Shown: positions 3 to 20,127 of the stretch, in pieces
How the letters are laid out: every line of letters begins with the position of its first letter
How positions within the stretch are numbered: the first letter of the stretch is position 1
Virus record (IMG/VR): IMGVR_UViG_3300042988_001200
Direction: 5' to 3' (one strand)
Source: a virus
Lineage: Duplodnaviria; Caudoviricetes
DNA length: 64,000 nucleotides
Notes under the pieces: generated by a model
The model's database searches: none
Seen by the model: only the letters and a program-made list of their open reading frames with translations
Told to the model about the DNA's origin: nothing
Position numbers and translations under genes: made by a program

Positions 3-3000
3 ATACCCTCTGGAGCTGACTCTAAGAATAAATCTATAGAGACTAACTACCTTCCAGAGGTACTAGCAGCAACTATAGGTATATCCTTTGGGGTAGGGGT
101 TGATGTAGGGATGTCTAAGTTATCTAAGAGTATGGCTAATAGGTCTAACACCTTTAGACATGTATTTGATAGAGATAGAACAGGGACTTTTAGTAAGAAC
201 TTCTCTCCTTTACTTTTAGGAGCTATAGCTGGAGCAGCTATATCAGATAACTCTATAGAAGATAAAGTACAGGGCACTTACCTAGGAGCTATGGGAGGAG
301 GATTTATAGGGTTCCTAGGTATGAAAGAAGAGATAGGTCCCATGCTTAATAAAAGATTAGGTCTAGGTCTAATGGGTGGGGCTCTAGGTCTATTAATAGG
401 TTCTAAGATAAGTGCTTCTAAAGAATCTAATAAAGTCACTTCTTATAGTATTAACAAAGGAGGAGAGTTAAGAGTTACTTATGATAACTTACAGGAGCTA
501 ATAAAAGAAGATAAAGCTACATTACCCTATGACTTCTATAAACATCCAGAGGCTAATAAGTTAGTAGAGGCTTATCTAATAAGTAATCAAAGGGGTTTTA
601 GAGGTATAGAAGATACAGGTAATTATGCAGATAGACATTTAATTTATCAGGTAAATAAAGATAAGCATGGATATAATACTCAAATAGGTAAGTTAAATAT
701 TAAGTTGGATATAACTGTTCCTAGTTATTCAAAAGAGGAGGGGTTTATTAGAGTTAGTCAAGAGGAGGTTAGAAAGAAGTATTCTATTAAGGATACTGAT
801 TCTATTGATAGAGCTAATGGTTTATTTAATGCTTATCAGATAGGTTTATTTATACCTTCTATGACCTTCTTTACTATAGGGACTATAGCAGAGGTTAAGA
901 ATAAACCCGGGGTTAAGAAGATAGTAGATTTTATTACTAACTATACAGATAAGGTTAAGTATCTATGGCCAGGAGAAAGAGCTATAGGTGAGGGTATACA
1001 GGAGATAGGGCAGGGGAGTACAGCCTTTCTTACTAGAGGCTATTCTAGAGGACTTAATAGAGGTATAAGGAAACTAGGGGAGGGCATTAAGTATAAAGTT
1101 ATAGGTGAATCCCTTAGTTTAGCTAAGAAGACATTTATCTATGCTATACCTGTATCTATAATCTCCTCTATGTTTGGAAATATAGACAGAGATAATAATC
1201 AGAATATAGAGGTCTATAGTAAAGAGGTGTCTCACTATGAAGCTATAGAGACTATAATGCCAAAGGCTACAGGTAATAAGAATATAGACTCTAGAGTTAA
1301 TCTTCAGACTTATATGGAGGAGGGTACAGCCTATAAGTTAGGGGATGTTATTATCTATGATTCGGGCACTATAGGCCAAGGATTAAGGAACTTTCTAGAG
1401 ACAGCTCCAGATAAATCTGTTAAAGCTCTTTTATATAAGCTAGGACATGAACAGGGGTTACAAGAGGTAATAAGTAGAAAGGCTGCTATAGGGGGTATAG
1501 GTATAAGTGGTGGGGACAATATAGATACCTTTTCCTTTTGGGATGAGATAGGAAAAGGATTTCAAGGAGAGGGGTCATGGGCACAGGTTTTTAGTTATCC
1601 TTTAAGAGCTAGTAAACATGAATCATTAGGAGCTGGTATAGCTTCAATAACCAGTCCTATAGTAGGAGGGTTGTATAACAATCTAGCTACTAACCTAGGC
1701 TTTGACCCTATATATAACTATAAGTTTGATAAAGATGTTTACTCTCCATTAGCTCATTCTCTAAATACTCTTACTTATGGTGGGTTGGGAGCAGCAATAG
1801 GTATAGGGATACATTCATATGTAGGGGGAGCAGGTAGGATACCTATGAGGGGTAAAGGGAGATTCGTAGGAGGGTTAATAGGAGGGCTTATAGGTGTAGC
1901 TCTAGGAGCCACTCAACCTACATATATAGACTCTGGATTCTATGATTCCTTAAGTAAACAAACACAGTTATCCTTTGGGGTATTTAAAGAGAGTAGTGCC
2001 CATAAAGCTCTTACTAAAAAAGATTCTTCTATAGGAGACTTAGTATTAGGGGCTGGACTAACTGCTGGACTACCAGCATTGGTAGGTGTGGCTCTACCAA
2101 TGAAAGGGAGAGTTAATAGAGGTATATTCCTAGGGATAGTTGGTTATACCACTGGTATGATTATATCTACTATGACAGGTAATGGTGTATTACCATCTAC
2201 CTTACCTATGTCTAGAAGGTTCTTAACCAATGAGTATGACCTTAGTAATCAAACCTTTAGTGTTTTACCAGGGGCTAGAAGGGGTAGTGGTAAACAACAG
2301 TTATCCCATATTCACTCTAAGACCTTATGGAGTAGGGAAGAGGTGTTTATATCTACAGGTAACTTAGATTCTGTATGGAAGAATATATATGGAGATGAGT
2401 CCCAGTTTAATATAGCTGTTAGGGTTAAAGGAGATACAGCTAAGAAGCTAATACCTCAATTAGATATTCTCCATGAGTTTATGAAGAAAGCTACTCCAGA
2501 TTCTAACCTTTCTTCTATAGTAGACCAGATACCTGATTTGATACTAGGGGGGCAAGGTTCTAAATCTAATGAGAAGATATTAGAGTTTATTCAATCAGCT
2601 AAAGGGGATTTATGGATATCTGCTCCATATCTAGCAGGATTAAGTAGAGATGTAAGACCTTTAGTAGAAGCTATTAAAGCTCTAGAGGCTAAGGGACAAA
2701 ATGTTCATCTTATAGCTCAGAACCCTAGAGGAGTGTCTGCTGGGGGCCAACCAGAGATGTCTATAGCTTTACAAAGAGAGTTATTAGCCTCTGGAATAGA
2801 TGTATACACCACTCCATATACTAATACCACCCTAACCCATGCTAAGTTATTAGCTGATGATGTAAAGACCTTTATAACTAGCCATAACCTATTCTCTGGT
2901 AACTCTATGAATAAGGTAGTAGAGGTAGGTATAGTTCTAGAGGGGGAGGAATATGCTAAGGCTACTAAACAGGCAGCCCTTAGATTTATGATAAAGAATA

Positions 3001-6000
3001 ACTTCTCTAATATTAAAGATAGTCCTCAATTCTCTCCAGAGGTATCTAAAGGATTTAGAGGGGTAGAAAGAGTAAAGGCCCTAGATATAAACCCTCAGTT
3101 TGCTGGTCTATTTGACCACCATTCAGGCTATCTCCTTCTTAACTCTCAAATGGGAGCATCCTTTTTCTACTCTAGAGCTCTATATAATAATCTCCAACGT
3201 CAAGCAGGTTTCTATCATAGGATTATAGATGAAGAGTTTGGTCCAGCTACTAGCTTATTTAAAATAGCTTATCTAGCTCACATAAATAAGAACACTAATA
3301 CTCCTTTAAGTACGGACTTATCGTATATCCCCTACTTTGTTAGTCAATATGATAAAGAGTTACAGACTCAGGGGGTAGGTGGGGTATTTAATGAGTTTGT
3401 ATCCATGAGGTTAGGGATGGGTAGGATGTATAAAGATGAGTATGGGTTTATAGGTTCTATAGCTGGTTCTATAGGGGCTATTCTAGATAGAACTTACCTA
3501 TTCTTCCAGGGAGGTAATATAGTGGGAGTTCATAGTAACTATGATGATGTAGATAACAAGGATATGAAGTATAAGAATAGAATGTTTCAAGAGGGGACCT
3601 TTGAAGCATTATTTACTTATCTAGCTGTTACTGCTGAATCTGCTGTAGCTTCTATAGCCTTATATATCTCATTAGGAGAACCTATTAATTTATTAATAGG
3701 AGAGGGTTTTAAGACATCTACAGAGAACTTTATTAGAGATGCTATTAAAGAAGAAGATTTCCTATCCCCTTCATCTAGACTTAAAAGAGCCTCTAACCTA
3801 GGGTTATATGACTCTCAGAGTTCTATACAAGCTAGACTATCTTTATTCTCTTCTATTACATCAGGGGAGGAGTATTTCTCTGTATCTAACTTTAAGTTAA
3901 CTCCTTATCATGTAAGCAACTTCTTCCTTAGAGAAAGGTCCTACCATCTACAAAGAGAGGTATTAGAACCCTTCTTACTAGAGAAGATAAACCCCTATGA
4001 GAGATTTGAAAGGTCTCAACAAGGTTTTAGAGCGGTTATTAATAAGTTTATAGAAGAGATAAGAACCCCTCCAGAGATTAGATTAGTAGCTTCAGAATCT
4101 AATCTAGAAACTATATCTAAACTAGTAAAACAACAGAAGGAGATAAGTGAACACTTAAGTTCTATAGGGGTTAATAAAAAGCTAGTAGATGTAATTATTT
4201 CAGAGGCTATAGGTTATAAGGAAGTAAGGAGTCAATTAGCCTCTGCTCTAAATCTAGATCCTAATGCCTCCTTAGATGAAATAGTTAACACTCTTAAAGG
4301 ATTTAACTCCTCCTCTTATTTAGATGGTGTACTTCCATCTATACAAACTAGAAATAAACTAGGTACTTATACTTATACAGAAGAGGGTAAGTTAATATCA
4401 GGAGTTAATTTAGAGATAGGTAATGTAGGTGTAGAGAGAGCTACTAGGATAGCAAGAGCTGTACAGGATATATTAGATGAGATACCTCTTAATCCTATAC
4501 ATTGGAAGGTCTTTAATAGTAATAGTGTGGCTTCTTTATTAGGAGTAAAGGAAGGGGGTTATCAGAGAGTGGTTAATAGAACTAACTTTACTGTTATATC
4601 TAAGGTAGCTACTATAGGGGATATCCTATCCTTTACAGATTTAACTCAAACTATGTCAGAGATTATGTTTGGTAAAGGAGGGATATCTGCCTTCATAGCC
4701 GCTAATGAAATATATAGTACAGAAATAGATAAGAGTATAGCTAGACATTCAGTAGATAGGATTCATACTATATGGAATATGACAGCAGGAGCTGCTTATA
4801 GAGCTTCCTCTAGAGCATGGTCTAGATATAAGTTAGTTATGGGATTACCCTTTCAGACTGGATTAATGAAGGCTAGTGAGTCATTAAAGGCTATGGAGTT
4901 TAATCTATTTAATAAGATAGGGGATGATGGATTAAGAGGTATAACCTGGGGAGATGATGCAGCTATTATCTCTAAGAGAATAGAGGATTTAACTAAAGAG
5001 GCTAAAGCTATATGGGAACAGTCTATACAGTCTGGTGAGTATGAACGTATATCTAAATATGTATCAAGTCTAGACCAAAGAGGGTTTATAGCTGAGTATA
5101 TAGCAGAACAATTACAACCTCATGTGGATCCATTAGCCAGAAGAATTAATTATATAGATGAATCAGTAGTATCTGCATTACATCAAGTAGATGAGGTTCA
5201 TCAGGCTCTATCTAATAACCCTAGAATGGCAGGTACTTTCCTTATGGAGATGCAAGAGCATTTAAGGAAAGAAACTATGGATATGTTTGTTACTGCTACT
5301 ATGAGTGGTTCTAATCTACAGAAACGTCTTATTAAACTTAGACCAGGGGACCCCTATGGTCTAGCCTCTAAGAAGAAGATGGCTTCTGTAGCTATGTCTT
5401 TATTAGGTATAGGAACTATATTCCTAGAACAACTCTTTACTAATACTCAGGGAGTAAGTATATTTACTCAGGTAGCCACAGCTCTTACATTTAGTAGATA
5501 TAGTGATAAAGAAAGTGGTGTATCTACTACATTTACTAATAGTGCTTTCCTACCTGGTTCTGGTGTATCTAGATATATAACTAATATAGGGGTTAATATA
5601 GGGGTCCTTGGTCTATCTCATATAATAGGTTCTTCTATATTAAGGGCTCAGGCTCTAGATTACACCTTTGATAATGACTTGTTATATAGACATATAGATG
5701 AGACTAGGGGAGCTTCTATTAACATAAGACTCAAACATCTAGATGCTAATGGAGATGAGGTAATAGAGCTTGTATCTGATTTAATAGATGATTGGAAGAC
5801 AGAGGGTGTAGAGTCTGGAGCTGACCTTATTAAGAGATTAAAGGGGTTAGTTAATGAGGGTTACTCCCTTCAATACGCGGTTACTAAAGGAGCTTCCACT
5901 AAGTACCTATCAGCTTTTGTAGAAGGTAAATATCTAAAGACTAGGGCTATTAGATTTGTAGGTAATACATGGTTTAACACTGCTGTAACATATGCTGTAT

Positions 6001-9000
6001 TAACAATGGCTATAAAAGGGGTTAAAGGGGGTATAGCTTCTACTCTTAATACTCTTAGAGATACTACTGGAACCATAGACCCTATTCTATTTGGAGGTAT
6101 AGGTATGGGTATTGGAGCTATAAAAGGGGGATTTAGAGGAGGTCTAGCTGGATTAGCTGTAGGGGTATTTAGCTCTTTTATAATGAATAGTCTAGGGGTT
6201 AAACTTCTTAATATTGGAGGTAAAGGAGTTAAAGTAGATAATTTAGAGACTGGTATTTTATCAGAACTATCTAACTTTAGACATTATGTTATGGCTAATC
6301 TAGGAGATGCTAGTAGAGCAGAACTAATGGCAGCTCTATGGTCTAGAAATATGGAGTCTGCCTATTCTATTCTCTATAAAGAGCCTTCTGGTACAACCTC
6401 TAATGTATTAGCTAAACAAATAACCTTTCCAGTATTCCAATTCTTCTTTACTAGTAAGGTAATAGGAGAACAAATAAATAATGAAGGGATAATAACCAAT
6501 CCTGGGCAGATATATTATAGTACAGGGATTCAGGGTCCTCCTATAAGTGGTATATCCTTCTCTTTTGGTCTTCCTTTTAAGATAGTAAAGGGAAAGGGGG
6601 TGTTTGGTACAGGTATTGCCTATAATGAAGAGGCTAATGTTATGGATTATATTCATAGTGTTAGCTACACCTCTTTATATCTAGGAGCTAATAGTCTAGC
6701 TCTTGGGACTTTATATAAAGTAAGTAACTCATTAAAGAGTAAATCAGCTATTAAGGAAGTAGGAGTTCTAGAAATGTTAGCTAAGATGTCTAAGGGTACT
6801 GCTCAATTAGTAGATGATGTTTTAATGACTCCCGTAGAGTTTGGATATAGAGTAGTAACCTCTCTAGCTACAGTGGATATTCGTAATGCTTTCTCTGTAG
6901 CTTATAAGGAACAAGATAAGGCTGCTCAATTAGGTACTTTAAGAAAACCTGTAGGGGGTATAGGAGCTCTAGCATTAAAGACTTTACTAGGGTTATATAT
7001 AGGGGGTCAGATAGGAAGTTTATATCAAGGTATAGTCTCTAAGGATACTATTGAGTATCAAGATAAAGTGTCTTCTGCTATAGATGTAGGGGCTCTTATA
7101 GGTGGGGGTCTAGCAGTTGGTCATCATTTTATATACCCTAAGATATATCCGCATATACAGGGTAAGTTATTTAAATACAACTCTTTACCTAGACTCCCTA
7201 GATATATACCAGCTCTAGCTATAGGAATAGGAGTAGGCACTCTTATGGCTAATAGTAGCTATGGATTAAGTAGTGGTATGGATTTCCATGAGGATGAACT
7301 TAGTTTCACTAAATATGCAATTACTGCTGTAGGTTATGGAACAGTATTAGGAACTGTAGCCTATAAGGTGGGTAATATAGGATTAACAATGGCAGATACT
7401 CTCCAGAAGTATGTAGATTTAGATAGTAGGTTAGAGATGGCTACTGTTAAGAGTACAACTGGTAGTGGGTTAAATAGGATGGTTAATAAGGCTAAGAAGT
7501 TCTACTACTCCTTATTTATAGATAATGCCCAGAAGGAAGCTCAGATGGTAGTAGATACTATTAAACATAACCAGCAGGAGATAGATGTTAGATATAACCA
7601 AGTAAAGGGGGTAAAGGGAGAAACAGTAGCAGATACTTTACCAGATGGTTATGCTCGTAAAGCTGTAGAACTTATAGATAATAATACAGATGTTAAGTTT
7701 CTTATTCACTCTAGTGAGAACAAAGAGATTCTTAATAATATTAATAAAGCTAAGGGTTCGTTCTTAGAGTCTAGATTTCATAAAAGGATATTTCCTCATA
7801 GAGTTAAGAGAACAGTAGGTGGGATGATAGCTCTTGGAATAGGATTATCTATATTAATGGGAGGTAATGAGGGTCAGTTCTATGATTATATAGAGGGAGC
7901 TTCTCCTGATCAATCTAAGGTTAGAGCTTCAATGGGTAAGATGCAGGCTGTATTCAGGTCTTCTCTAGCAGATATATTTAGGTTAATAACAGGTAGAGAT
8001 AAGAAGCTAATGAGTCCTAACCAACTTAATAATGTCTTTAGGTCAGCATCTGAGTATACAGGTATAGACTATAAAGTTCAATATGAGAAGTTATTAAAGA
8101 CTAGACCAGACCTTATTAATTCTATTAATAGTAGTATTAATGGTTTCTCTCAATTAATGGTATTTGATAGCCCTAATGCTTTTATATCTATAGGGGTTAT
8201 AGGAGGAGCATTTAGAAGAAGTGAGTATGGTAACATCTTAACTCCTTATATTCAGATTCAAGGTACAGGGGCTGATATAAGTACAGCTTCCTACCAAATG
8301 GTCTCTAGGTTCTATTTCAACTCTGTTATAGGTGGAGCTAATAATCTCTACTTTGATATTATGAATGCTGTAAAGATAAGTAATCAGGCATTAAAAGCTG
8401 GTCAACCTATGTCTAAATTTATATCTAGACAGATAGCTATTAACCTTCTTAGTGTTACAGCTAAACAACAACCTCTACAGAAGAGGAGGAAGGTCTCTAT
8501 GTTAAATGAAGAGACTATATCAGCCCTATCTTCTGATAGCCTTCTAGGAGCCATATTAAAACATAGGGTTAATATTACTAAGAACCTTAGCTATCAACCA
8601 CCCCTCTCTTTAGCTACTAGACTTTTATTAAATAATGTAGAGACTAATCCTCAAATAGCTAATCCTGTACTTCTATATTTACTTTCTCCTGATACTTTAA
8701 AGGAACTAGGTTTAAATATTGACTCTACTGTATTTGAGTTGTTATCTAAGGACCCCTTCTTCTTATTATCTAAGTCCTTTGTTATTAATGGTATTAACTC
8801 TTTTGCTCTTAATAGAGATGCTGTAGGTAATTACCTTAAAGGTATATTCTTCCCAGCTCAGATACCTATGGACCATCAAGATATATGGAAGGGTGGGGAT
8901 TCCTCCTATATCTCCTCCTATTATCAACATGAAGGAGACATAGGCTTTGCTATTATGCAGGCTAGTAGAACCAATCCTATCCTTCAATTATTAGGTAATT

Positions 9001-12000
9001 TAACTAGAGGAGTTCCTAGTTCTATTAAGGCCCTAGGAGCTGGAGTCATATTTGCTTCTTTATTAGGGGTTATAACCTTTAATCTAGGGAGAAAGGGTCT
9101 AGCTATAGAAGATAGAGCTTTATATAAGGAGATAAATGAATACTTTCTATCTGGATGGTTTAAACAAAGTAGAGAGGCAGAGGGGTTTGCATGGACCTTT
9201 AGAACCTCTTATCCCTTAGTAGGTAAGAAGGCTAGTCTAAAGGTTAGTGGAGAGAACTATTCTATTATCTATAAGGGGGCATACCAGTTTGTTATTAATA
9301 ATAGGATAGGTAATAGTGTAGGTATAAGTAGACTATTAGCTAAAGTACAGGAGGACCTGTATGGAATAATTACTGAATCCTTTGGGGCTGAATATGATGA
9401 TAAAGGGGTGATGACTAAGAAAGGTACTAATCTAGCAGACTGGTTTTTATCTAGTAATAAACAAAAGGAGTTAATCCAGGCCATTGAGTCTATAGATAAA
9501 CCTACTAAGGCTGATTCTTTAACCATCACTCATTTAGATGAGAATGGTAACTCTACGGATAAAGTCTTTACAGTAGAAACAGATAAACCTATACTAGATA
9601 ATCTTAATAACCTTAAACACTTTGAGGATTCATTAGGAGAATTAGATGAGGCTCAGTCCGCTCTATTAATTGAGTTTAGAAGTAAACAGACATCATTATA
9701 TGAGAAATCACTTAGACCCTCTACTTTAGTAAAGAATATAACAGATGTTTTTATGAAGGATATGGAAGATTTAGTAGATAGATACATAGACACCCTTATT
9801 GATAATAGGATAAGAGTTAATGAGAACTATCTATTAAATTTACCTCAATTAGATAATGAAACTAAATCTATAAGTGAAATATTTGATTCATATCAAGACC
9901 CTAATAGTAGATATAAGGGGATAGTTAAATATGTAGATTCCTTTGGAGATGTAACTAGATGGACAGAAGTATCCTTTATAACTATACTTAACCCTAATAT
10001 GGGACTACAGGATATGATGGAAATTAGTTATCTATTAAAGAATAAGGATACAAGACCCGAGGGTTTAACTAGATTAGTAGCTGGAATGAGTGCAGAACAA
10101 AAAGCTCTTTATACTGTAAATATAGATGGGAAGGCTACTGTAGATATCCATAAGGCCCTTAAAGAACAAGCTAGGGTGGCCATTAGTGATGCTGTGGAGC
10201 AGTATATATCCCAGTTCCCAGGGTCAACAGAGGAAGCAAAGAAGGCTCTTCTAAAGCATTTCCAAGGTACTAATCCTAGACTAGATAATATGACTATAGA
10301 AGTTCTAGGGGGTTTAATTGGATTAAAGAAGGATAAAGATGCTTCCTTCTTTTCTTTACTTAGACATCATTGGGCTGGATTAGGAACTACACCTACTGCT
10401 GATGTAACTAGAGGTCTCTCTACAACTATGAGACGTATGGTTAATTTTATTAGAGGTAAATCTTCTATACCAGATGCTGATGAGACAGGGGTAGTATCTA
10501 CTACTAAGACAGACCCTTATCTAATCGGTAAGTCTAATAATAGTCCTATACCTATGGGGATAATGACTGAATCAGGAGATGAGGTTATTAATAGAGTTCT
10601 AGTAGCTCAAGATATGGCTAGAGCTGATGTAGGATTTGGTAATAAGATAGGTAAGGGCTTTGGTATATTACTAGAGTTCTTAGGCTTTGGAGTAGATGTA
10701 GTAGAGGGTGTATCTACTATGGCCGCCTTCTCTAGATTAGGTCATGCTTATACATCTGAGACATATACAGAAGCTCAGATTATGAATGAGGCTATGTACG
10801 CTGGTACTACCCTAGTTAACTCTGCTTTATCTATACTTATTCTAGGAGCTGCTTCTTATGCAGCTAATGTATTTGCAGCAGGGACTTTAGCTGCTTTTAT
10901 AGCTCCATTGGTTATTATAGGTGTAGCTTCATTAGCAGGCTTTGCCTTTAATAAATGGGCTCCAGACTCTATTAAGAGTAAAGTTCATGGAGGGTTTAAT
11001 AAACTATATGAAGGGGCAGCTAAGATGCTTAAAGGTGGTGGAGATTTCTTTAGAGATAAGTTTGGTAAAAGAGCTGCATCAGCATTCTCTCATGCTGTAG
11101 GTGGCATAATGATGGGGGGAATGATAGTAGCATCTCTAGGTACTATCTCATCTATCAGTGCTTTAGTAGGGTTAGGTACAGCTATATCTATGCCTGCTCT
11201 AGGCAGCTTCTTATTAGCAGGGGCAGCTATAGGTGGTGTAACAGCAGCAGCTATAGGGTTTCTTAATCCTGGTTTATTAGATAAAACTCTAGGTCCTATG
11301 GTAGAGTCCTTAAGTAATGTAAGGATAGGTAATGTTCCTTTAGGACGTTTATTTGTTATAAGACCAGACCAGTGGTTATATGAGTTTATGAAGACAGGAG
11401 ACCCTATAACTGGAGTAGATAAATATGGAGCTCCTATTAAAGCTATAACTGCTAATGATTTAATTAAACAAGATTATGCTGCTCAATTACTAGCTGCTGA
11501 TGATTATACCGGCTCTAGTGCTGCTTCTTTATTTATCCACCAAGGGATGTATGGAACTTATAACACTAATAACTCAATAGATAAATATGGAAAGGTAAGT
11601 ATAATAAGGCCCCCTTCTATACTTTCTCCCTTTATTCAAAAGGAGATTAAATATAGAGGTCAACTCTTTAATCAATCTATTGTAGGTAGATATGTATGGA
11701 ATACTCTACTAGCTAATAGTTCTAACCAAAGGCATGTAAGAAAGGTTATGGAATCTCCTATACTTAAACCCTCTACTAATGCTCTTAAACAAATAAGTAT
11801 TGATGCAGCTAGACATGCACAAGTAAAACAGTTCCAATCTAAGTCTGTGACCTTATTATCTAAGTCCTTTACTATCAGAAATATACCTATACTAGCCTCT
11901 ATAATTGATAAGTTTAATGATGCTAAAGCTAAGTTACAGGCTAAGATAGCTTACGCTAAATTACCCATCAGGGCTATATTTAGATTAGATAATATAACAA

Positions 12001-12143
12001 GTTCTGATAGAGAATATAAAAAGGATTTAAGATTAGCTCCAATGGAAGTAGCAGCTATTGTAGATGGTAATATTATAAGGAAGGTTACAACCTCTGAATC
12101 AGAGATTAAAGAGGAAGTTTTTAATAATATTAATTACAGTTAA
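3..12143 (+). CDS. Giant tape-measure-like / ejected virion protein with embedded PLD (HKD) domain, 5'-partial, at least 4046 aa
   Basis: The frame is open from nt 3 (IPSGADSKNK...) through the tracked ATG at 111 to the stop at 12143. It has many Gly/Ala-rich hydrophobic segments. PLD motifs are HSKTLWSR..STGNL (His at nt 2313) and HAKLLADD..TSHNL..EVG (His at nt 2838). The tape-measure role is inferred from size and composition. Confidence 0.6.
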   Translation: MPSGADSKNKSIETNYLPEVLAATIGISFGVGVDVGMSKLSKSMANRSNTFRHVFDRDRTGTFSKNFSPLLLGAIAGAAISDNSIEDKVQGTYLGAMGGGFIGFLGMKEEIGPMLNKRLGLGLMGGALGLLIGSKISASKESNKVTSYSINKGGELRVTYDNLQELIKEDKATLPYDFYKHPEANKLVEAYLISNQRGFRGIEDTGNYADRHLIYQVNKDKHGYNTQIGKLNIKLDITVPSYSKEEGFIRVSQEEVRKKYSIKDTDSIDRANGLFNAYQIGLFIPSMTFFTIGTIAEVKNKPGVKKIVDFITNYTDKVKYLWPGERAIGEGIQEIGQGSTAFLTRGYSRGLNRGIRKLGEGIKYKVIGESLSLAKKTFIYAIPVSIISSMFGNIDRDNNQNIEVYSKEVSHYEAIETIMPKATGNKNIDSRVNLQTYMEEGTAYKLGDVIIYDSGTIGQGLRNFLETAPDKSVKALLYKLGHEQGLQEVISRKAAIGGIGISGGDNIDTFSFWDEIGKGFQGEGSWAQVFSYPLRASKHESLGAGIASITSPIVGGLYNNLATNLGFDPIYNYKFDKDVYSPLAHSLNTLTYGGLGAAIGIGIHSYVGGAGRIPMRGKGRFVGGLIGGLIGVALGATQPTYIDSGFYDSLSKQTQLSFGVFKESSAHKALTKKDSSIGDLVLGAGLTAGLPALVGVALPMKGRVNRGIFLGIVGYTTGMIISTMTGNGVLPSTLPMSRRFLTNEYDLSNQTFSVLPGARRGSGKQQLSHIHSKTLWSREEVFISTGNLDSVWKNIYGDESQFNIAVRVKGDTAKKLIPQLDILHEFMKKATPDSNLSSIVDQIPDLILGGQGSKSNEKILEFIQSAKGDLWISAPYLAGLSRDVRPLVEAIKALEAKGQNVHLIAQNPRGVSAGGQPEMSIALQRELLASGIDVYTTPYTNTTLTHAKLLADDVKTFITSHNLFSGNSMNKVVEVGIVLEGEEYAKATKQAALRFMIKNNFSNIKDSPQFSPEVSKGFRGVERVKALDINPQFAGLFDHHSGYLLLNSQMGASFFYSRALYNNLQRQAGFYHRIIDEEFGPATSLFKIAYLAHINKNTNTPLSTDLSYIPYFVSQYDKELQTQGVGGVFNEFVSMRLGMGRMYKDEYGFIGSIAGSIGAILDRTYLFFQGGNIVGVHSNYDDVDNKDMKYKNRMFQEGTFEALFTYLAVTAESAVASIALYISLGEPINLLIGEGFKTSTENFIRDAIKEEDFLSPSSRLKRASNLGLYDSQSSIQARLSLFSSITSGEEYFSVSNFKLTPYHVSNFFLRERSYHLQREVLEPFLLEKINPYERFERSQQGFRAVINKFIEEIRTPPEIRLVASESNLETISKLVKQQKEISEHLSSIGVNKKLVDVIISEAIGYKEVRSQLASALNLDPNASLDEIVNTLKGFNSSSYLDGVLPSIQTRNKLGTYTYTEEGKLISGVNLEIGNVGVERATRIARAVQDILDEIPLNPIHWKVFNSNSVASLLGVKEGGYQRVVNRTNFTVISKVATIGDILSFTDLTQTMSEIMFGKGGISAFIAANEIYSTEIDKSIARHSVDRIHTIWNMTAGAAYRASSRAWSRYKLVMGLPFQTGLMKASESLKAMEFNLFNKIGDDGLRGITWGDDAAIISKRIEDLTKEAKAIWEQSIQSGEYERISKYVSSLDQRGFIAEYIAEQLQPHVDPLARRINYIDESVVSALHQVDEVHQALSNNPRMAGTFLMEMQEHLRKETMDMFVTATMSGSNLQKRLIKLRPGDPYGLASKKKMASVAMSLLGIGTIFLEQLFTNTQGVSIFTQVATALTFSRYSDKESGVSTTFTNSAFLPGSGVSRYITNIGVNIGVLGLSHIIGSSILRAQALDYTFDNDLLYRHIDETRGASINIRLKHLDANGDEVIELVSDLIDDWKTEGVESGADLIKRLKGLVNEGYSLQYAVTKGASTKYLSAFVEGKYLKTRAIRFVGNTWFNTAVTYAVLTMAIKGVKGGIASTLNTLRDTTGTIDPILFGGIGMGIGAIKGGFRGGLAGLAVGVFSSFIMNSLGVKLLNIGGKGVKVDNLETGILSELSNFRHYVMANLGDASRAELMAALWSRNMESAYSILYKEPSGTTSNVLAKQITFPVFQFFFTSKVIGEQINNEGIITNPGQIYYSTGIQGPPISGISFSFGLPFKIVKGKGVFGTGIAYNEEANVMDYIHSVSYTSLYLGANSLALGTLYKVSNSLKSKSAIKEVGVLEMLAKMSKGTAQLVDDVLMTPVEFGYRVVTSLATVDIRNAFSVAYKEQDKAAQLGTLRKPVGGIGALALKTLLGLYIGGQIGSLYQGIVSKDTIEYQDKVSSAIDVGALIGGGLAVGHHFIYPKIYPHIQGKLFKYNSLPRLPRYIPALAIGIGVGTLMANSSYGLSSGMDFHEDELSFTKYAITAVGYGTVLGTVAYKVGNIGLTMADTLQKYVDLDSRLEMATVKSTTGSGLNRMVNKAKKFYYSLFIDNAQKEAQMVVDTIKHNQQEIDVRYNQVKGVKGETVADTLPDGYARKAVELIDNNTDVKFLIHSSENKEILNNINKAKGSFLESRFHKRIFPHRVKRTVGGMIALGIGLSILMGGNEGQFYDYIEGASPDQSKVRASMGKMQAVFRSSLADIFRLITGRDKKLMSPNQLNNVFRSASEYTGIDYKVQYEKLLKTRPDLINSINSSINGFSQLMVFDSPNAFISIGVIGGAFRRSEYGNILTPYIQIQGTGADISTASYQMVSRFYFNSVIGGANNLYFDIMNAVKISNQALKAGQPMSKFISRQIAINLLSVTAKQQPLQKRRKVSMLNEETISALSSDSLLGAILKHRVNITKNLSYQPPLSLATRLLLNNVETNPQIANPVLLYLLSPDTLKELGLNIDSTVFELLSKDPFFLLSKSFVINGINSFALNRDAVGNYLKGIFFPAQIPMDHQDIWKGGDSSYISSYYQHEGDIGFAIMQASRTNPILQLLGNLTRGVPSSIKALGAGVIFASLLGVITFNLGRKGLAIEDRALYKEINEYFLSGWFKQSREAEGFAWTFRTSYPLVGKKASLKVSGENYSIIYKGAYQFVINNRIGNSVGISRLLAKVQEDLYGIITESFGAEYDDKGVMTKKGTNLADWFLSSNKQKELIQAIESIDKPTKADSLTITHLDENGNSTDKVFTVETDKPILDNLNNLKHFEDSLGELDEAQSALLIEFRSKQTSLYEKSLRPSTLVKNITDVFMKDMEDLVDRYIDTLIDNRIRVNENYLLNLPQLDNETKSISEIFDSYQDPNSRYKGIVKYVDSFGDVTRWTEVSFITILNPNMGLQDMMEISYLLKNKDTRPEGLTRLVAGMSAEQKALYTVNIDGKATVDIHKALKEQARVAISDAVEQYISQFPGSTEEAKKALLKHFQGTNPRLDNMTIEVLGGLIGLKKDKDASFFSLLRHHWAGLGTTPTADVTRGLSTTMRRMVNFIRGKSSIPDADETGVVSTTKTDPYLIGKSNNSPIPMGIMTESGDEVINRVLVAQDMARADVGFGNKIGKGFGILLEFLGFGVDVVEGVSTMAAFSRLGHAYTSETYTEAQIMNEAMYAGTTLVNSALSILILGAASYAANVFAAGTLAAFIAPLVIIGVASLAGFAFNKWAPDSIKSKVHGGFNKLYEGAAKMLKGGGDFFRDKFGKRAASAFSHAVGGIMMGGMIVASLGTISSISALVGLGTAISMPALGSFLLAGAAIGGVTAAAIGFLNPGLLDKTLGPMVESLSNVRIGNVPLGRLFVIRPDQWLYEFMKTGDPITGVDKYGAPIKAITANDLIKQDYAAQLLAADDYTGSSAASLFIHQGMYGTYNTNNSIDKYGKVSIIRPPSILSPFIQKEIKYRGQLFNQSIVGRYVWNTLLANSSNQRHVRKVMESPILKPSTNALKQISIDAARHAQVKQFQSKSVTLLSKSFTIRNIPILASIIDKFNDAKAKLQAKIAYAKLPIRAIFRLDNITSSDREYKKDLRLAPMEVAAIVDGNIIRKVTTSESEIKEEVFNNINYS

Positions 12144-15946: not shown

Positions 15947-17233
15947 TTAGTAATTAAATACCTTTATAACATAATCAATTGTAGATAAATCTTTAAGAAT
16001 AGATATTTGAGAGAATGATTCTTTACCTCTACCTGTTTTAGATATTAGAGTAAGGATAGTTTGATGGTAAGATATATCCTCCCCATGATTAGATATAAGG
16101 TAATCAATAATATCTATAGCTTCTTCATATATTTGATTCTTTATAGTAGAGGGGTCTATATTATTTTTAATACAGTATAAAAGAGTGTCATTTATATCTT
16201 TACCATATTCTAAGGGTGGGGTCCATATAGATACCTTAGAGTCTATAAGACTTAGTTGTAAATCTATAACTTGAGGAATTAGAACTCTCCAACTTTTATA
16301 TTGATTAGGGAAATACTCATGGTCTGATGGGAACTTATCATTATCCCCAATAACAAGAATATGTTTAAAGTCTTTAATCTTAGACGTATGCTTTAGTAGA
16401 TTGCTAAGACCTAATATACCTACAGAGGGTAAACCCATTTGAGCTAGAGAACAAGTATCGGGAGCCCCCTCAGCTATAACTATAGTAGGATGAATAGATT
16501 TATAAACATTAAGTTTCTCCTCTAGAAAGAGAAAGGAAGTTATAGGCGGTACTAGAGAACTAAGAGTGGCCTTATACTTAGAGATTAAATCCTTTTTATC
16601 CTCTGGTATAGGTAGAATGTATCTTCCTTGAAGGTGTACAAATCTATTACAGTTATCCTTTATAGGAAAGATGATTCTATTAGAGAAGAACTCTCTATCA
16701 GTTATAGGATTATATAAACCTTCTCTTTCTAGGTCTATAGATTTAAAACCCCTACTTCTTAATAAAGCTCCATAAGAAGGAGCATAACCTAATTCCCAAT
16801 TTCTTATATTTCTTTCAGTAAAGCCTCTTTCTTTTAGATAATTAATAGCTTTATTATTACTATTCCAGAGTTCTTGTTGATATATATACATAATCTGTTT
16901 TAGAAACTCACTTCTTTCGTTTAATCTATTAGAGTGACCTTCATAATCTAAGGAAGATATTAATTCAGATATAGCTTGAGAAAAAGAACAATTATGAATA
17001 ATACAGTATATATCTATAACATCTAGAGACTTTCTTTTATCTTTAATATATTTATAAGAAGGACAAGAAGTAGAATAGCACCATCCATATTGATTATTTA
17101 TAGTTCTCCATTTCTTTATTTTATTACAAAAAGGACAGGTGGATGTCCCTTCTTTATTTACTTTTATTAAAGAGTCAATACTAATATTAGATTTGATTAA
17201 ATCAACCTTTGTTTGTAGAGAAGTAGATATCAC
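15947..17233 (-). CDS. dnaG: DNA primase, DnaG type
   Basis: Zn-binding CPFC...WCYSTSC, FSNRIIFPIKD, TOPRIM motifs IAEGAPD and IGDND, and GKDIND. Confidence 0.9.
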   Translation of the reverse strand: MISTSLQTKVDLIKSNISIDSLIKVNKEGTSTCPFCNKIKKWRTINNQYGWCYSTSCPSYKYIKDKRKSLDVIDIYCIIHNCSFSQAISELISSLDYEGHSNRLNERSEFLKQIMYIYQQELWNSNNKAINYLKERGFTERNIRNWELGYAPSYGALLRSRGFKSIDLEREGLYNPITDREFFSNRIIFPIKDNCNRFVHLQGRYILPIPEDKKDLISKYKATLSSLVPPITSFLFLEEKLNVYKSIHPTIVIAEGAPDTCSLAQMGLPSVGILGLSNLLKHTSKIKDFKHILVIGDNDKFPSDHEYFPNQYKSWRVLIPQVIDLQLSLIDSKVSIWTPPLEYGKDINDTLLYCIKNNIDPSTIKNQIYEEAIDIIDYLISNHGEDISYHQTILTLISKTGRGKESFSQISILKDLSTIDYVIKVFNY

Positions 17234-17236
17234 AGT

Positions 17237-17707
17237 TTATTTACCTTCTTCTATTCTTATAGATGGTATAGGATTATCTTTTTTTTGTTCAAATAAAAGC
17301 TCAAAACCTCCTAATATTGAAGATAAGATCATAATAAATATTACAGAAACATAAAGAGCCACTTCTTTATAATCTGTTAATAATTTAAATAAAGCTAGTA
17401 TAACATTAGGTTTATCACTATTATTAATAATAAGGGGTAGGGCTCTTTCTTTGGATTCATTTAAATCTTCTTTAAGAGAAGTAAGTCTAGTTTCTGTTTT
17501 AAAAGTTAGAGTTTCATATTTTCTTTCTAGTTCTATTAAACTATTTTTTAGTTCTTCTTTCTTTTCTATTGAATCCTTTAGAAATAATTCTATCTCTTGA
17601 ATTTTTGATTTGAGGGTTTTAATCTCCATAAATAAAACGATAAAACTTATTTCTGGAGTTTTATTCTTTAATAAGTCTTCTATATTTATGTAATCATCGT
17701 TATTCAT
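17237..17707 (-). CDS. Coiled-coil protein with C-terminal transmembrane helix
   Basis: Heptad-rich middle region and hydrophobic VALYVSVIFIMILSSILGGF. Overlaps the response regulator gene. Confidence 0.6.
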   Translation of the reverse strand: MNNDDYINIEDLLKNKTPEISFIVLFMEIKTLKSKIQEIELFLKDSIEKKEELKNSLIELERKYETLTFKTETRLTSLKEDLNESKERALPLIINNSDKPNVILALFKLLTDYKEVALYVSVIFIMILSSILGGFELLFEQKKDNPIPSIRIEEGK

Positions 17708-18218
17708 TTTTCCTTATTATAGATTTTATATGGCATTTAAAATCTTTTATAAAGCTGGGTAGTCCTTTAAAAAAAGGACTACTACAACCTTTAATAAATT
17801 CTAATCTTGCTATACTTTTATTTATAGATTCTTTTAGAATTAATTTATTATTCATTAATGTTTCTTTATTTATATAATCTTGACATCCTAATTCTAGACA
17901 AATATCTCTATGAATATCATTGTTATATCCCGATACAACTATAATAATAATATCCTTAATCCTCCCTTGTAGAAAGAGTAATAGATTATATATAACAATT
18001 AACGGGTAGGATTCTAAATTATTAGAGTTAGGAGCTATATGAAAATCTTTTATATCTAAGTCTGTAATGATGATATCTACTACATTATTATTAAGAATAT
18101 CTATAGCTCCTCTCAAGGAAGTTGCTGAAAAGAGAGTAAAATCTTTTAGTAAATACTTCTCTATTTCCAGGTCATCTTCATTATCTTCTATAATTAATAC
18201 TTTTTTATTCTTTCTCAT
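17700..18218 (-). CDS. Response regulator receiver-domain protein
   Basis: VLIIEDNEDD acidic pocket, phospho-acceptor D53 (IIITDL), VVSG, GCQDYINK (conserved Lys). Confidence 0.88.
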   Translation of the reverse strand: MRKNKKVLIIEDNEDDLEIEKYLLKDFTLFSATSLRGAIDILNNNVVDIIITDLDIKDFHIAPNSNNLESYPLIVIYNLLLFLQGRIKDIIIIVVSGYNNDIHRDICLELGCQDYINKETLMNNKLILKESINKSIARLEFIKGCSSPFFKGLPSFIKDFKCHIKSIIRKNE

Positions 18219-18841
18219 AAGGTTATTTGAATACTAAACTCCCCTTTTTCATTAATGAAACTTATAGTTCCCTTTATTATTTCTACTATAAAACTAACTA
18301 TATATAGCCCTAGACCTACACCTTCTGTATTTAAATCTTCCTTTTTAAAGGGTTTAGATAGATAAATATTAAAGGATTTATCTATCTTTTTATTATTACT
18401 TTTGTAATCTATATAGAGCTTATCCTTTACTTTATAAGTATTAATACTTATAACAGTAACTTGTTCCTCTTTAAATTTAAAGCTGTTATCTATTAGTTGT
18501 TCTATTAGAAGTTGAAATAATAGATAATCACTTTTAATAATAAAAGAATTAATATTTAATTTATATAGTTGATTATATTTATAAAGAGTTTCATTAACAA
18601 TATCTTTAATATTAAACTCTTTATAAATAACTATGTGTTCTTTTATTTTATTAACAACTTCTAGTTGAGTTATATATCTTTTTATTCTATTGTTATTAAA
18701 CTCTATCTTATGAATAAAAGCATCTCTTTCTTCACTGATTATACTTTTATTTCTTAATATATATAAATTATTATTTATATTTCTATATATTTGATTAAGA
18801 GTATGAAGAGATAGAAAAGTAAAGTCTGTTGGTTCTATCAT
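18215..18841 (-). CDS. Sensor-less histidine kinase core (HisKA + HATPase_c), degenerate G1 box
   Basis: H-box-like FTFLSLH13, N box LIDNSFKF, F box SKPF, G2 box GVGLGLYIV. No DxGxG motif. Confidence 0.8.
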   Translation of the reverse strand: MIEPTDFTFLSLHTLNQIYRNINNNLYILRNKSIISEERDAFIHKIEFNNNRIKRYITQLEVVNKIKEHIVIYKEFNIKDIVNETLYKYNQLYKLNINSFIIKSDYLLFQLLIEQLIDNSFKFKEEQVTVISINTYKVKDKLYIDYKSNNKKIDKSFNIYLSKPFKKEDLNTEGVGLGLYIVSFIVEIIKGTISFINEKGEFSIQITL

Positions 18842-18857
18842 TGATTTAAATAATAAA

Positions 18858-18885
18858 TTATAGGTAGAGTAGTCTCTACCTATAA
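18858..18885 (-). terminator. Hairpin, probable terminator after the helicase gene
   Basis: 12-bp stem TTATAGGTAGAG/CTCTACCTATAA, 4-nt loop, T-rich tail on the minus strand. Confidence 0.6.
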
Positions 18886-18901
18886 CATTATAGATATAAT
18901 A

Positions 18902-20068
18902 TTAAGCCCATTGAGAGTAGATAGGGTCAATATAGTTAGACCTAATAAACTCCTTTTTAGTGCCTACAAATCTAAGGAGAGATGGACTCTTTACTCTAGA
19001 TAAGATTACATATAAAGCTCCATGAAGCCTTCTTAAGAAGTAGTCTCCTAGTTTACATTGAAGAGTAGAGTCTAGAGTAAGACCTTGGCAAGCATGTACT
19101 GTAAGAGCATATGCCGGTTTAAGTGGTAGATACTCTACTGAACCTACTATACCTAAAGGAGTTTCATTATAAATAGTTTTATATTCAATATCTACTTCAG
19201 CTCCAATAGATAGTTTCACTTTTACATAATCTTTAGCTAGTTTAATTACAGTCCCTATAGAACCATTAGAGTAACCCTCCTTTAGATTATTAGTCATAAT
19301 AATAACCTTACAGTTAGGTTTTAGATATAACTCTTTAGGTATCTTAGAGGAAACAGGAGGAGGATTCCCCTTAGTGTAATAAGTATACTTAGTAAATCTT
19401 CCTTTAAGTTCTAGTAGTTTCTGATAGTTATAGCTATGGACATCAGCATTCTTAGAAAATATAGTAGTTCCCTCAATACTAGAATCTAACTCTTTATGGA
19501 AAGCTCCTATCTCCTCTAACCAATCAGCACACTCTGTAGCTTCACCCATTCTTATCTTATTAAGTAGTTCGATAAAAGTGGGGTCTGATTGTCTATGTAC
19601 TGTAGATAACTTTTCTATTGTAAATCTAGACCAATTAACACTCTTAAAGGCTGGTAGTACAGGATAATCCTCTTTACCAGTAACTACTATAGGTAGTTGT
19701 AGGAAGTCTCCTACTAGAGTTAGACCCAGGGGTTTATTAGATATATCGTTATTAAAGTTATCTAAAGCCGCTAAGATTAAATCTAGTTGAATAGCGTTTA
19801 GCATAGATACTTCATCTATACAAATACCATCATATCCCTTAGATATATATCTAAGATTTTTATTAATAGCTCCAGTCTGTACTTTCTTAGATAAATCTTC
19901 TACATCAAAGAAACCTAAAATACTATTAATAGTCTTGCCATTACCTAATAAAGCAGCAGAACCTGTAGTAGCAGTTCTATATAAACAACTAGGGTTTTCC
20001 TCTAGAAGTTTATTTATATGAGTGCTTTTACCACTCCCAGCAGGACCTACTATAACTTTAAATTCCAT
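18902..20068 (-). CDS. SF1B helicase, Pif1/Dda/RecD-like
   Basis: GPAGSGKS, DEVSM, GDFLQLP, HRQSD, YALTVHACQG, YVILSRVK. Confidence 0.92.
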   Translation of the reverse strand: MEFKVIVGPAGSGKSTHINKLLEENPSCLYRTATTGSAALLGNGKTINSILGFFDVEDLSKKVQTGAINKNLRYISKGYDGICIDEVSMLNAIQLDLILAALDNFNNDISNKPLGLTLVGDFLQLPIVVTGKEDYPVLPAFKSVNWSRFTIEKLSTVHRQSDPTFIELLNKIRMGEATECADWLEEIGAFHKELDSSIEGTTIFSKNADVHSYNYQKLLELKGRFTKYTYYTKGNPPPVSSKIPKELYLKPNCKVIIMTNNLKEGYSNGSIGTVIKLAKDYVKVKLSIGAEVDIEYKTIYNETPLGIVGSVEYLPLKPAYALTVHACQGLTLDSTLQCKLGDYFLRRLHGALYVILSRVKSPSLLRFVGTKKEFIRSNYIDPIYSQWA

Positions 20069-20097: not shown

Positions 20098-20127
20098 TAT
20101 CCTCCTTCCATTACTAGAAGGAGGATA
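20098..20127 (-). terminator. Intergenic hairpin
   Basis: 11-bp stem TATCCTCCTTC/GAAGGAGGATA just after a stop codon. Confidence 0.5.

Follow-up and report, generated by a model that had tools for sequence, protein, structure and literature searches.

The question raised by this locus is what a histidine kinase without a sensor, a response-regulator receiver without an output domain and a small membrane protein are doing side by side in the replication block of a bacteriophage. The locus lies in a Caudoviricetes record of IMG/VR (IMGVR_UViG_3300042988_001200; 171,917 bp), of which a stretch of 64,000 nucleotides, here called the window, was analysed; the three genes, referred to below as the cassette, span positions 17237-18841. 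From its gene content and motifs the cassette appears to be a reduced variant of a two-component system, carried by a cyanophage lineage. We tentatively propose that it forms a reduced, input-less His-Asp phosphotransfer pair accompanied by a tail-anchored coiled coil, the kinase half docking the phage receiver, a reading that we prefer and hold to fall somewhat short of probable. The genes and sites on which the argument turns are these:

18215-18841, minus strand: kinase-like gene (208 amino acids), a DHp-CA histidine-kinase core with no input domain
18803-18805, minus strand: codon of His13, the predicted phospho-acceptor (from the H-box alignment)
18386-18400, minus strand: degenerate G1 box, S148-N-N150-K-K152 in place of D-x-G-x-G (from the alignment, in which the sister lineage has DSGIG in the same columns)
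17700-18218, minus strand: receiver gene (172 amino acids), a stand-alone REC domain with an insertion after beta3 and a helical C-terminal extension
18060-18062, minus strand: codon of Asp53, the predicted phospho-acceptor of the receiver (a column invariant against cellular receivers and the sister lineage)
17979-18050, minus strand: lineage-specific insertion of the receiver, residues 57-80, in the beta3-alpha3 region (from the comparison of lineage identities)
17237-17707, minus strand: membrane-protein gene (156 amino acids), a tail-anchored coiled coil belonging to no known family
17291-17362, minus strand: single, C-terminal transmembrane (TM) helix of the membrane protein, at about residues 116-139 (Kyte-Doolittle)

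The genes are closely packed: the stop of the kinase gene and the start of the receiver gene share 4 nt (ATGA), the receiver and membrane-protein genes overlap by 8 nt, and the GTG start of the primase (17233) lies 3 nt past the membrane-protein stop. An initial annotation of this DNA, made from the sequence alone, had described three overlapping genes wedged between helicase and primase, and the reading frames, overlaps and flanks were all confirmed. At 22.7% GC a stop is expected about once per 10 codons (P(stop) ~0.10 per codon), so that open frames of 208, 172 and 156 codons, with chance probabilities of 2e-10 to 5e-8, are not chance frames. Genome-wide profile searches found no other histidine kinase, REC or histidine phosphotransfer (Hpt) gene in the 172-kb record, and the kinase and receiver are therefore each other's sole phage-encoded partners.

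The same arrangement is present in a sister lineage, represented by contigs from other samples (L003 to L006), where helicase, kinase (204 amino acids), receiver (173), membrane protein (164) and primase follow one another with the same type of overlap. The synteny in related phages that the initial annotation had proposed to look for is thus seen in this lineage, and the three cassette genes appear to be translationally linked and conserved as a unit. Between the window and the sister lineage, identity is 53% for the receiver, 46-49% for the membrane protein and 38-39% for the kinase, with 69% for the flanking helicase (L004) and 70% for the primase (L003). The ratios of nonsynonymous to synonymous substitution rates (dN/dS, Nei-Gojobori, window against the L003 lineage) are 0.28 for the receiver and 0.39 for both kinase and membrane protein, as compared with 0.16 and 0.21 for the flanks; these are overestimates, since dS is saturated (1.0-1.5) between the two lineages. 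All three cassette frames are intact at this distance, and intact frames after such divergence in AT-rich DNA speak strongly against pseudogenes. The initial annotation had named decayed host fragments with dN/dS near 1 as the outcome that would speak against a functional module; the values found, 0.28-0.39, and the open frames instead indicate a cassette under selection rather than one in decay.

A third lineage bears on the membrane protein. Two independent contigs, L016 and L017, share 95.8% DNA identity with L004, and for the membrane-protein gene L016 and L004 show 69% amino acid identity at an unsaturated dS of 0.585, with a dN/dS of 0.29, which argues for purifying selection on this protein. 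The neighbouring primase has a dS of 0.137 in the same comparison, and genes further along show ~1% nucleotide differences; the cassette thus seems to lie in a patch of deeper divergence, reflecting a recombination mosaic or allele exchange. Both contigs end just upstream of the membrane-protein gene (L016 positions 1-75, L017 positions 1-96), and what they retain of the receiver 3' end carries an in-frame TAA 17 codons ahead of the normal stop, removing just the poorly conserved last helix. Strains of the window phage from other studies are identical where covered, and the contigs of four runs gave no close-range polymorphism for kinase and receiver. A contig joint skipping 17180-18638 was dismissed as unreliable, having 21 letters on one side.

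The first protein models as a complete DHp-CA core in which the phospho-acceptor histidine is in register. An AlphaFold2 (AF2) model built on a 39-sequence alignment (predicted local distance difference test score, pLDDT, 90.4) shows a helical hairpin (residues 4-29 and 36-68) followed by an alpha/beta CA domain, and the top Foldseek matches are WalK (4u7o), HK853 (3dge), CusS, DivL and RetS, with E values down to 2e-14. An anti-sigma-factor-type serine kinase (HATPase_c_2) was considered and is ruled out by the full DHp hairpin. Among the profiles that the initial annotation had proposed to search, HATPase_c is found in the 208-residue protein (34 bits; Pfam cut-off 26.4) and Response_reg (PF00072) in the receiver (34.7 bits, in two stretches; cut-off 30.2); Pfam HisKA (PF00512) is not, giving no match in the kinase-like protein at E up to 1 and none at the locus in a genome-wide search. 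Nevertheless, H13 falls on the phospho-acceptor histidine of the HisKA H-box in nearly all of the 30-odd cellular kinases inspected, the pairwise alignments mostly starting at residues 5-7 with an H-box of the type F-x-Y-x-x-S-H-D-L-x-E-P-L-R-x-I, and it is invariant in the 39-sequence alignment and conserved in the L003 lineage.

Twelve residues precede this histidine, and the frame closes 20 codons ahead of the ATG, within the hairpin-bearing gap that separates it from the helicase; a kinase beginning at the H-box without any sensor domain, as first described, is what the locus encodes. The 39-sequence alignment also agrees with the original description of the motifs. The N box (N119), the F box and the G2 box (G174/G176/G178) are retained, the DxGxG of G1 is replaced by S148/N150/K152, and the acidic residue, Asp/Glu, that normally follows the histidine (position H+1) is replaced by Thr (T14) in the window kinase and by F in that of the L003 lineage. 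In addition, H+5 is Ile where Pro is almost invariant, this proline being absent in both alleles, and the C-terminal GxGxxF motif is missing from the window protein. The G1 Asp of GHKL ATPases makes contact with the adenine base, and we infer that the window kinase lacks canonical ATP binding; because G1 is lost and both the H+1 acid and the H+5 proline are absent, it probably does not autophosphorylate from ATP. The sister lineage has an intact G1 (DSGIG), which points to a recent, lineage-specific loss, and conservation between the two lineages favours H13, the N box (69% identity) and the G2 box. Since G1 was lost in the window lineage only, a function common to both alleles cannot depend on it.

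The same residues bear on a reading in which the kinase is active. DHp-CA cores taken in isolation often show constitutive activity in vitro, and the cassette could then be an autonomous switch, a sensor-less autokinase phosphorylating the receiver as soon as it is made and so sending an infection-timed ON signal to the membrane protein. The retained His, N, F and G2 boxes, the complete G1 of the sister allele, the ordinary CA fold of the model and the co-translation of the genes would all suit such a switch. The window allele, however, has the G1 Asp and both Gly replaced, and neither allele has the H+1 acid; we consider this explanation unlikely.

The kinase has few relatives. A phmmer search of 1.84 billion representatives returned one true relative (P0004, 41% identity), followed by generic kinases at no more than 31%, and the family is therefore tiny, with two lineages among all these representatives. 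The best sequence matches of solved structure are AdeS, HprS, SrrB and WalK; GTDB genomes yielded two Reinekea kinases at 23-26% identity and no close relative; and the best cellular matches are generic (a Cytophagales HAMP kinase, 'PhoR'), so that the donor clade hoped for from such searches could not be traced. The initial annotation had matched the H-box to bacteriophytochrome/Cph1-type kinases. The register proved right and the kinship did not, bacteriophytochrome reaching an E of just 4.6e-4 against better values for generic kinases; as a specific link it was rejected, the H-box type being widespread and the best matches being generic class-I kinases. The suggested connection to light signalling is likewise unsupported.

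The second protein is, as far as its residues can tell, a catalytically complete stand-alone receiver. Its catalytic set (E11, D12, D53, S96, Y115 and K118) is complete and invariant between lineages, which extends the earlier observation that the acidic pair, D53, S and K are kept. The AF2 model, with a pLDDT of just 72.6, shows a REC fold with a long alpha5 (126-145) and a further helix (153-170), and its Foldseek matches are REC domains. Neither the family libraries nor the model revealed an output domain, the two C-terminal helices having no family match, again as first described. After beta3 there is an insertion of 16-24 residues (57-80) that is missing in the cellular receivers aligned and in REC171, the longer receiver of a Microcoleus phage introduced below; it is the best-conserved part of the protein, with 75% identity between lineages compared to 55% for the rest of the REC core, conservation being poor (26%) over the last 27 residues. 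Among the cellular receivers found, the nearest are the N-terminal REC domains of REC-PAS-kinase proteins, which carry the same 'G-A-x-D-Y-I-x-K, no Pro' signature, and JGI metagenomes searched with the receiver gave just N-terminal REC domains of large cellular proteins. Kinship with the receivers of cyanobacteria, which the initial annotation had called established, was not confirmed, and no cyanobacterial donor is supported.

The third protein has no Pfam, NCBIfam or PADLOC family, and an ESM Atlas look-up gave sub-threshold leads alone. Three lineages of it are known. Its layout consists of a conserved N-terminus (63% identity over 30 residues), a coiled coil, the TM helix at ~116-139 and a 17-residue tail; the Kyte-Doolittle peak is 2.32 at residues 116-134, and the TM segment has the same position in L003 and L016. 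Because there is no signal peptide, the hydrophilic N-terminal part of 115 residues must be cytoplasmic, making the protein tail-anchored. This topology also bears on the split sensor that had been offered as an alternative, in which input would come from the membrane protein, its coiled coil contacting the DHp bundle and so governing the kinase. Co-translation of the three genes, a kinase that begins exactly where an input helix normally joins DHp helix 1, and the conserved first 30 residues of the membrane protein would fit such an arrangement. However, only ~17 residues are exposed beyond the single C-terminal TM helix, which leaves no extracytoplasmic sensing domain, and in the Microcoleus phage, where the kinase carries TM and PAS input of its own, a protein of the same type is also present and thus does not stand in for an input domain there. 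The split sensor is thus unsupported, and we regard it as the most improbable of the explanations considered here. A complex prediction with two kinase chains, one receiver and residues 1-112 of the membrane protein scored 0.00 and, having been run without controls, is uninformative either way.

The most informative comparison is with the Microcoleus phage My-WqHQDG (OR578706), a metagenome-assembled phage with a host assigned via CRISPR spacers. At 7186-10276, on the minus strand of its locus, it carries a four-gene two-component cassette in the helicase-primase slot. The proteins (WOL31350-WOL31353) are annotated as 'hypothetical' and 'response regulator receiver domain protein', and the paper on this phage is silent on them (bioRxiv 10.1101/2023.04.12.536658):

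Kinase of My-WqHQDG: 545 amino acids, with a TM segment, PAS, HisKA (HDLQEP) and HATPase_c (G1 DHGIG)
REC138 of My-WqHQDG: a 138-residue receiver
REC171 of My-WqHQDG: a 171-residue receiver with a C-terminal extension
Membrane protein of My-WqHQDG: 179 amino acids, with an N-terminal coiled coil, TM segment at 133-151 and a short tail

The likeness lies in the slot between an orthologous helicase (34.7% identity) and primase (35%), with a PD-(D/E)XK nuclease further on, and in the internal order of kinase, receiver and tail-anchored coiled coil, read along its own strand. REC171 matches the window receiver profile over its full length (hhalign 96.5%, E 8e-10, 149 columns), the match of REC138 being weak (28.7%, 52 columns). 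The My-WqHQDG cassette differs in its full-length kinase, with TM, PAS, canonical H-box and G1, and in the extra 138-residue receiver. We consider the window cassette most likely to be a reduced counterpart of this full sensor-kinase cassette. The initial annotation had proposed a host pair captured and repurposed as a phosphate sink, phosphatase or decoy; a real, selected phage cassette without sensor and without G1 is upheld, but not the donor clade or a fresh capture, since the My-WqHQDG version in the same slot points to a long-standing phage-owned module that was reduced in the window.

Several observations weigh against the reading of the cassette as a kinase-dead reduction of the My-WqHQDG system. 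In My-WqHQDG the cassette is inverted with respect to its flanks, on the opposite strand; its kinase is 19% identical to that of the window (E 1e-7); no sequence similarity could be detected between the two membrane proteins; and the window receiver, 25% identical to REC171, has counterparts at least as close among cellular receivers (some at 27-34%). The two cassettes may therefore have been acquired independently, at a slot that is variable. The retained N, F and G2 boxes make residual nucleotide binding possible, Q/N/A at H+1 also occurs in some of the aligned cellular kinases, and the kinase, as the fastest-evolving and most AT-rich gene of the block, fits relaxed constraint too. As to the low similarities, the cassette genes evolve about twice as fast as the flanks (window against L003), and because the flanks themselves are 35% identical, such decay is expected for orthologues.

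Relaxed constraint, taken further, would make the kinase a decaying remnant, a truncated leftover of a My-WqHQDG-type sensor kinase, with just the receiver and the membrane protein functioning. It has the lowest between-lineage identity of the cassette (38%) and the lowest GC (20.6%; 12% at third codon positions, GC3), and it has lost G1, the H+5 Pro and the C-terminal GxGxxF. The composition is shared in part by its neighbours in the cassette, whose genes have the lowest GC of the replication block (20.6-24.1%, with 26-34.5% in the neighbouring genes; GC3 12-16% vs 19-24%); in L003 the kinase gene alone is clearly lower (24.9%). Against decay, two lineages at dS >1 both retain an open kinase frame spanning the whole DHp-CA core, although a neutral frame would fill with stops at that distance, the H13, N-box and G2-box positions are preferentially conserved, and the dN/dS of 0.39 is overestimated through the saturation of dS. 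A remnant is very unlikely on this evidence.

The preferred reading, of a phosphotransfer pair without input, may then work as follows. The kinase core would dimerise via its DHp hairpin and dock the phage receiver in the manner of HK853-RR468. Because it is sensor-less and without G1, a role as phosphatase, phosphotransferase or sink is likelier than that of an ATP-driven sensor kinase, and the protein may act as a phosphatase or as a reversible histidine phosphotransferase of the Spo0B/ChpT kind, setting the phosphorylation level of the receiver. The receiver in turn would draw phosphoryl groups from host kinases or acetyl phosphate, and its output would be a protein contact made through the beta3-alpha3 insertion and the alpha4-beta5-alpha5 face, the partner plausibly being the co-translated third protein at the inner membrane. 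Candidate outputs are replication timing, a membrane or lysis step, or host reprogramming.

Each part of this proposal has precedents among known systems. With class I HisKA-type cores (WalK/YycG 4u7o, HK853 3dge, CusS 7zp0, AdeS 7cch) the window protein shares the DHp hairpin, the histidine in register and the N, F and G2 boxes, but it lacks the input domain, H+1 acid, H+5 Pro, G1 and the Pfam HisKA match. Spo0B and ChpT are histidine phosphotransferases, and DivL (4q20) and RetS (6dk7) are pseudokinases found among the fold matches; in all four the DHp-CA architecture is kept with a degenerate ATP site, and such proteins dock receivers or other kinases. The window kinase differs in keeping the His (unlike DivL) and the N and G2 boxes, and the likeness is architectural, with no specific sequence relationship; Spo0B and ChpT are absent from the top 50 Foldseek matches. 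The receiver resembles the single-domain regulators CheY, Spo0F, DivK and CpdR, as well as DtcB, in being complete without an output and presumably working through protein contacts or as a sink for phosphate, and differs from them in being phage-encoded, with the conserved 16-24-residue insertion and the helical tail.

It is the example of DtcB, a stand-alone receiver that buffers phosphate in the Detocs defence system (bioRxiv 10.1101/2023.01.24.525353), together with that of PIT4, a phage protein reported to perturb host two-component systems (PMC10714779), that lends some plausibility to a host-directed decoy or phosphate sink. The cassette would then drain a host His-Asp pathway, either a stress or light regulon or a Detocs-type defence; the receiver would take up host phosphate, the kinase-like protein would recycle it as a phosphatase, and the membrane protein would position both beside membrane kinases. 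The missing sensor, the degenerate ATP site and the intact receiver suit this role, and a narrow distribution, fast evolution and a mosaic patch (dS 0.585 vs 0.137 in the primase) are typical of conflict genes. Yet PADLOC models gave nothing for the kinase or the membrane protein, a weak PDC-M60B match for the receiver and no match to Detocs; the cassette has no sensor or effector domain of the kind found in Detocs (DtcA/DtcB/DtcC); and the full-length sensor kinase of My-WqHQDG suggests that the ancestral cassette truly senses. We give the decoy a low probability.

Phages are already known to exploit host two-component systems and sometimes to carry single parts of them: phiCDHM1 has an AgrC kinase without a receiver (PMC3901668), pelagiphages carry kinases beside curli genes (PMC9599517), and PHROG has families of kinase-like and receiver-like phage proteins. 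A comparable arrangement is that of the Alteromonas phages V22 (gp29-gp30) and A5 (gp10-gp11), where CheY-like genes lie beside those of small membrane proteins (PMC10579305). They share with the cassette a stand-alone receiver adjoining a membrane coiled-coil protein; the partner proteins, however, are anchored at the N-terminus, and in A5 there is no kinase and the module lies in the host-recognition and lysis region instead of the replication block. No homology to the cassette was found by tblastn at E up to 10, and BLASTP and hhalign gave no match.

The phage itself is probably a Ma-LMM01-like large freshwater cyanophage, to judge from its nearest cultured relatives, which are Microcystis and Microcoleus cyanophages (the window helicase is 38% identical to that of Ma-LMM01 and 34.7% to that of My-WqHQDG). 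It occurs in freshwater, freshwater-sediment and subsurface metagenomes of several studies, and a freshwater cyanobacterial host is likely, though unproven. A match to NblA, at 171030-171131 of the phage genome and outside the window, is sub-threshold (22 bits vs the Pfam cut-off of 25) but would agree with such a host. The receiver gene is found nowhere in the genomes of Ma-LMM01 and of a 252-kb relative, L007 (IMGVR_UViG_3300049048_000052), so that the cassette is not universal in the group. In L007, with 44% (helicase) and 33% (primase) identity to the window, there is no kinase or receiver gene, and the helicase-primase interval (1935-8269) holds five unrelated open reading frames (ORFs) together with an ATP-dependent DNA ligase; the interval is an accessory slot whose content varies. 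DNA and protein searches of the INPHARED phages found no further cassette members, and neither did pattern searches of IMG/VR with kinase, receiver and membrane protein, which gave at most generic cellular domains.

A broader and more doubtful proposition is that Ma-LMM01-like cyanophages own a replication-module cassette that takes a sensing form in My-WqHQDG and, in the window, that of a kinase-dead relay fed by host phosphoryl donors. If true, such a relay would couple a phage membrane or replication step to the signalling or energy state of the host. In the literature searched, a phage-encoded His-Asp relay plugging into host phosphorylation was found undescribed, as was a complete kinase-receiver cassette with a dedicated membrane partner in the replication block of a lytic phage, and there was no functional work on any such cassette. 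What is new here is the evidence of selection on a kinase-receiver-membrane-protein cassette, a natural pair of alleles (G1 intact vs lost) that could separate kinase-dependent from kinase-independent functions, and a probable full-length counterpart in My-WqHQDG that supplies a host to work with. Were the receiver fed by host phosphodonors, viruses of bloom-forming cyanobacteria would have a new route to reading or rewiring the physiology of their hosts.

The surroundings of the cassette are made up of the following features:

18902-20068, minus strand: flanking Dda/PIF1-like helicase (family and profile matches)
18857-18886, minus strand: gap hairpin with a 13-bp stem, then a T-rich tract and TATAAT
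15947-17233, minus strand: flanking DnaG-type primase (family and profile matches)

The hairpin lies in the 60-nt gap between helicase and cassette and has a folding energy of -17.6 kcal/mol (z = -4.5). At the equivalent site L004 has a hairpin of unrelated sequence (z = -3.5), with TATAAT after it too. The element is likely a terminator or attenuator, or an RNA-stability element, setting the cassette apart from the helicase. A second hairpin with a 13-bp stem is found in the gap before the helicase (20098-20127, minus strand), and both are trailed by a T-rich TATTATTTA-like tail; terminator-like sites in the scanned 11-kb region number 12, compared to 4.1 expected. Elsewhere in the window, at 111-12143 on the plus strand, a giant ORF of at least 4010 amino acids has a PLD-like domain (PF13091) at residues 823-953, and a homologue of 4284 amino acids occupies the same place in L016.

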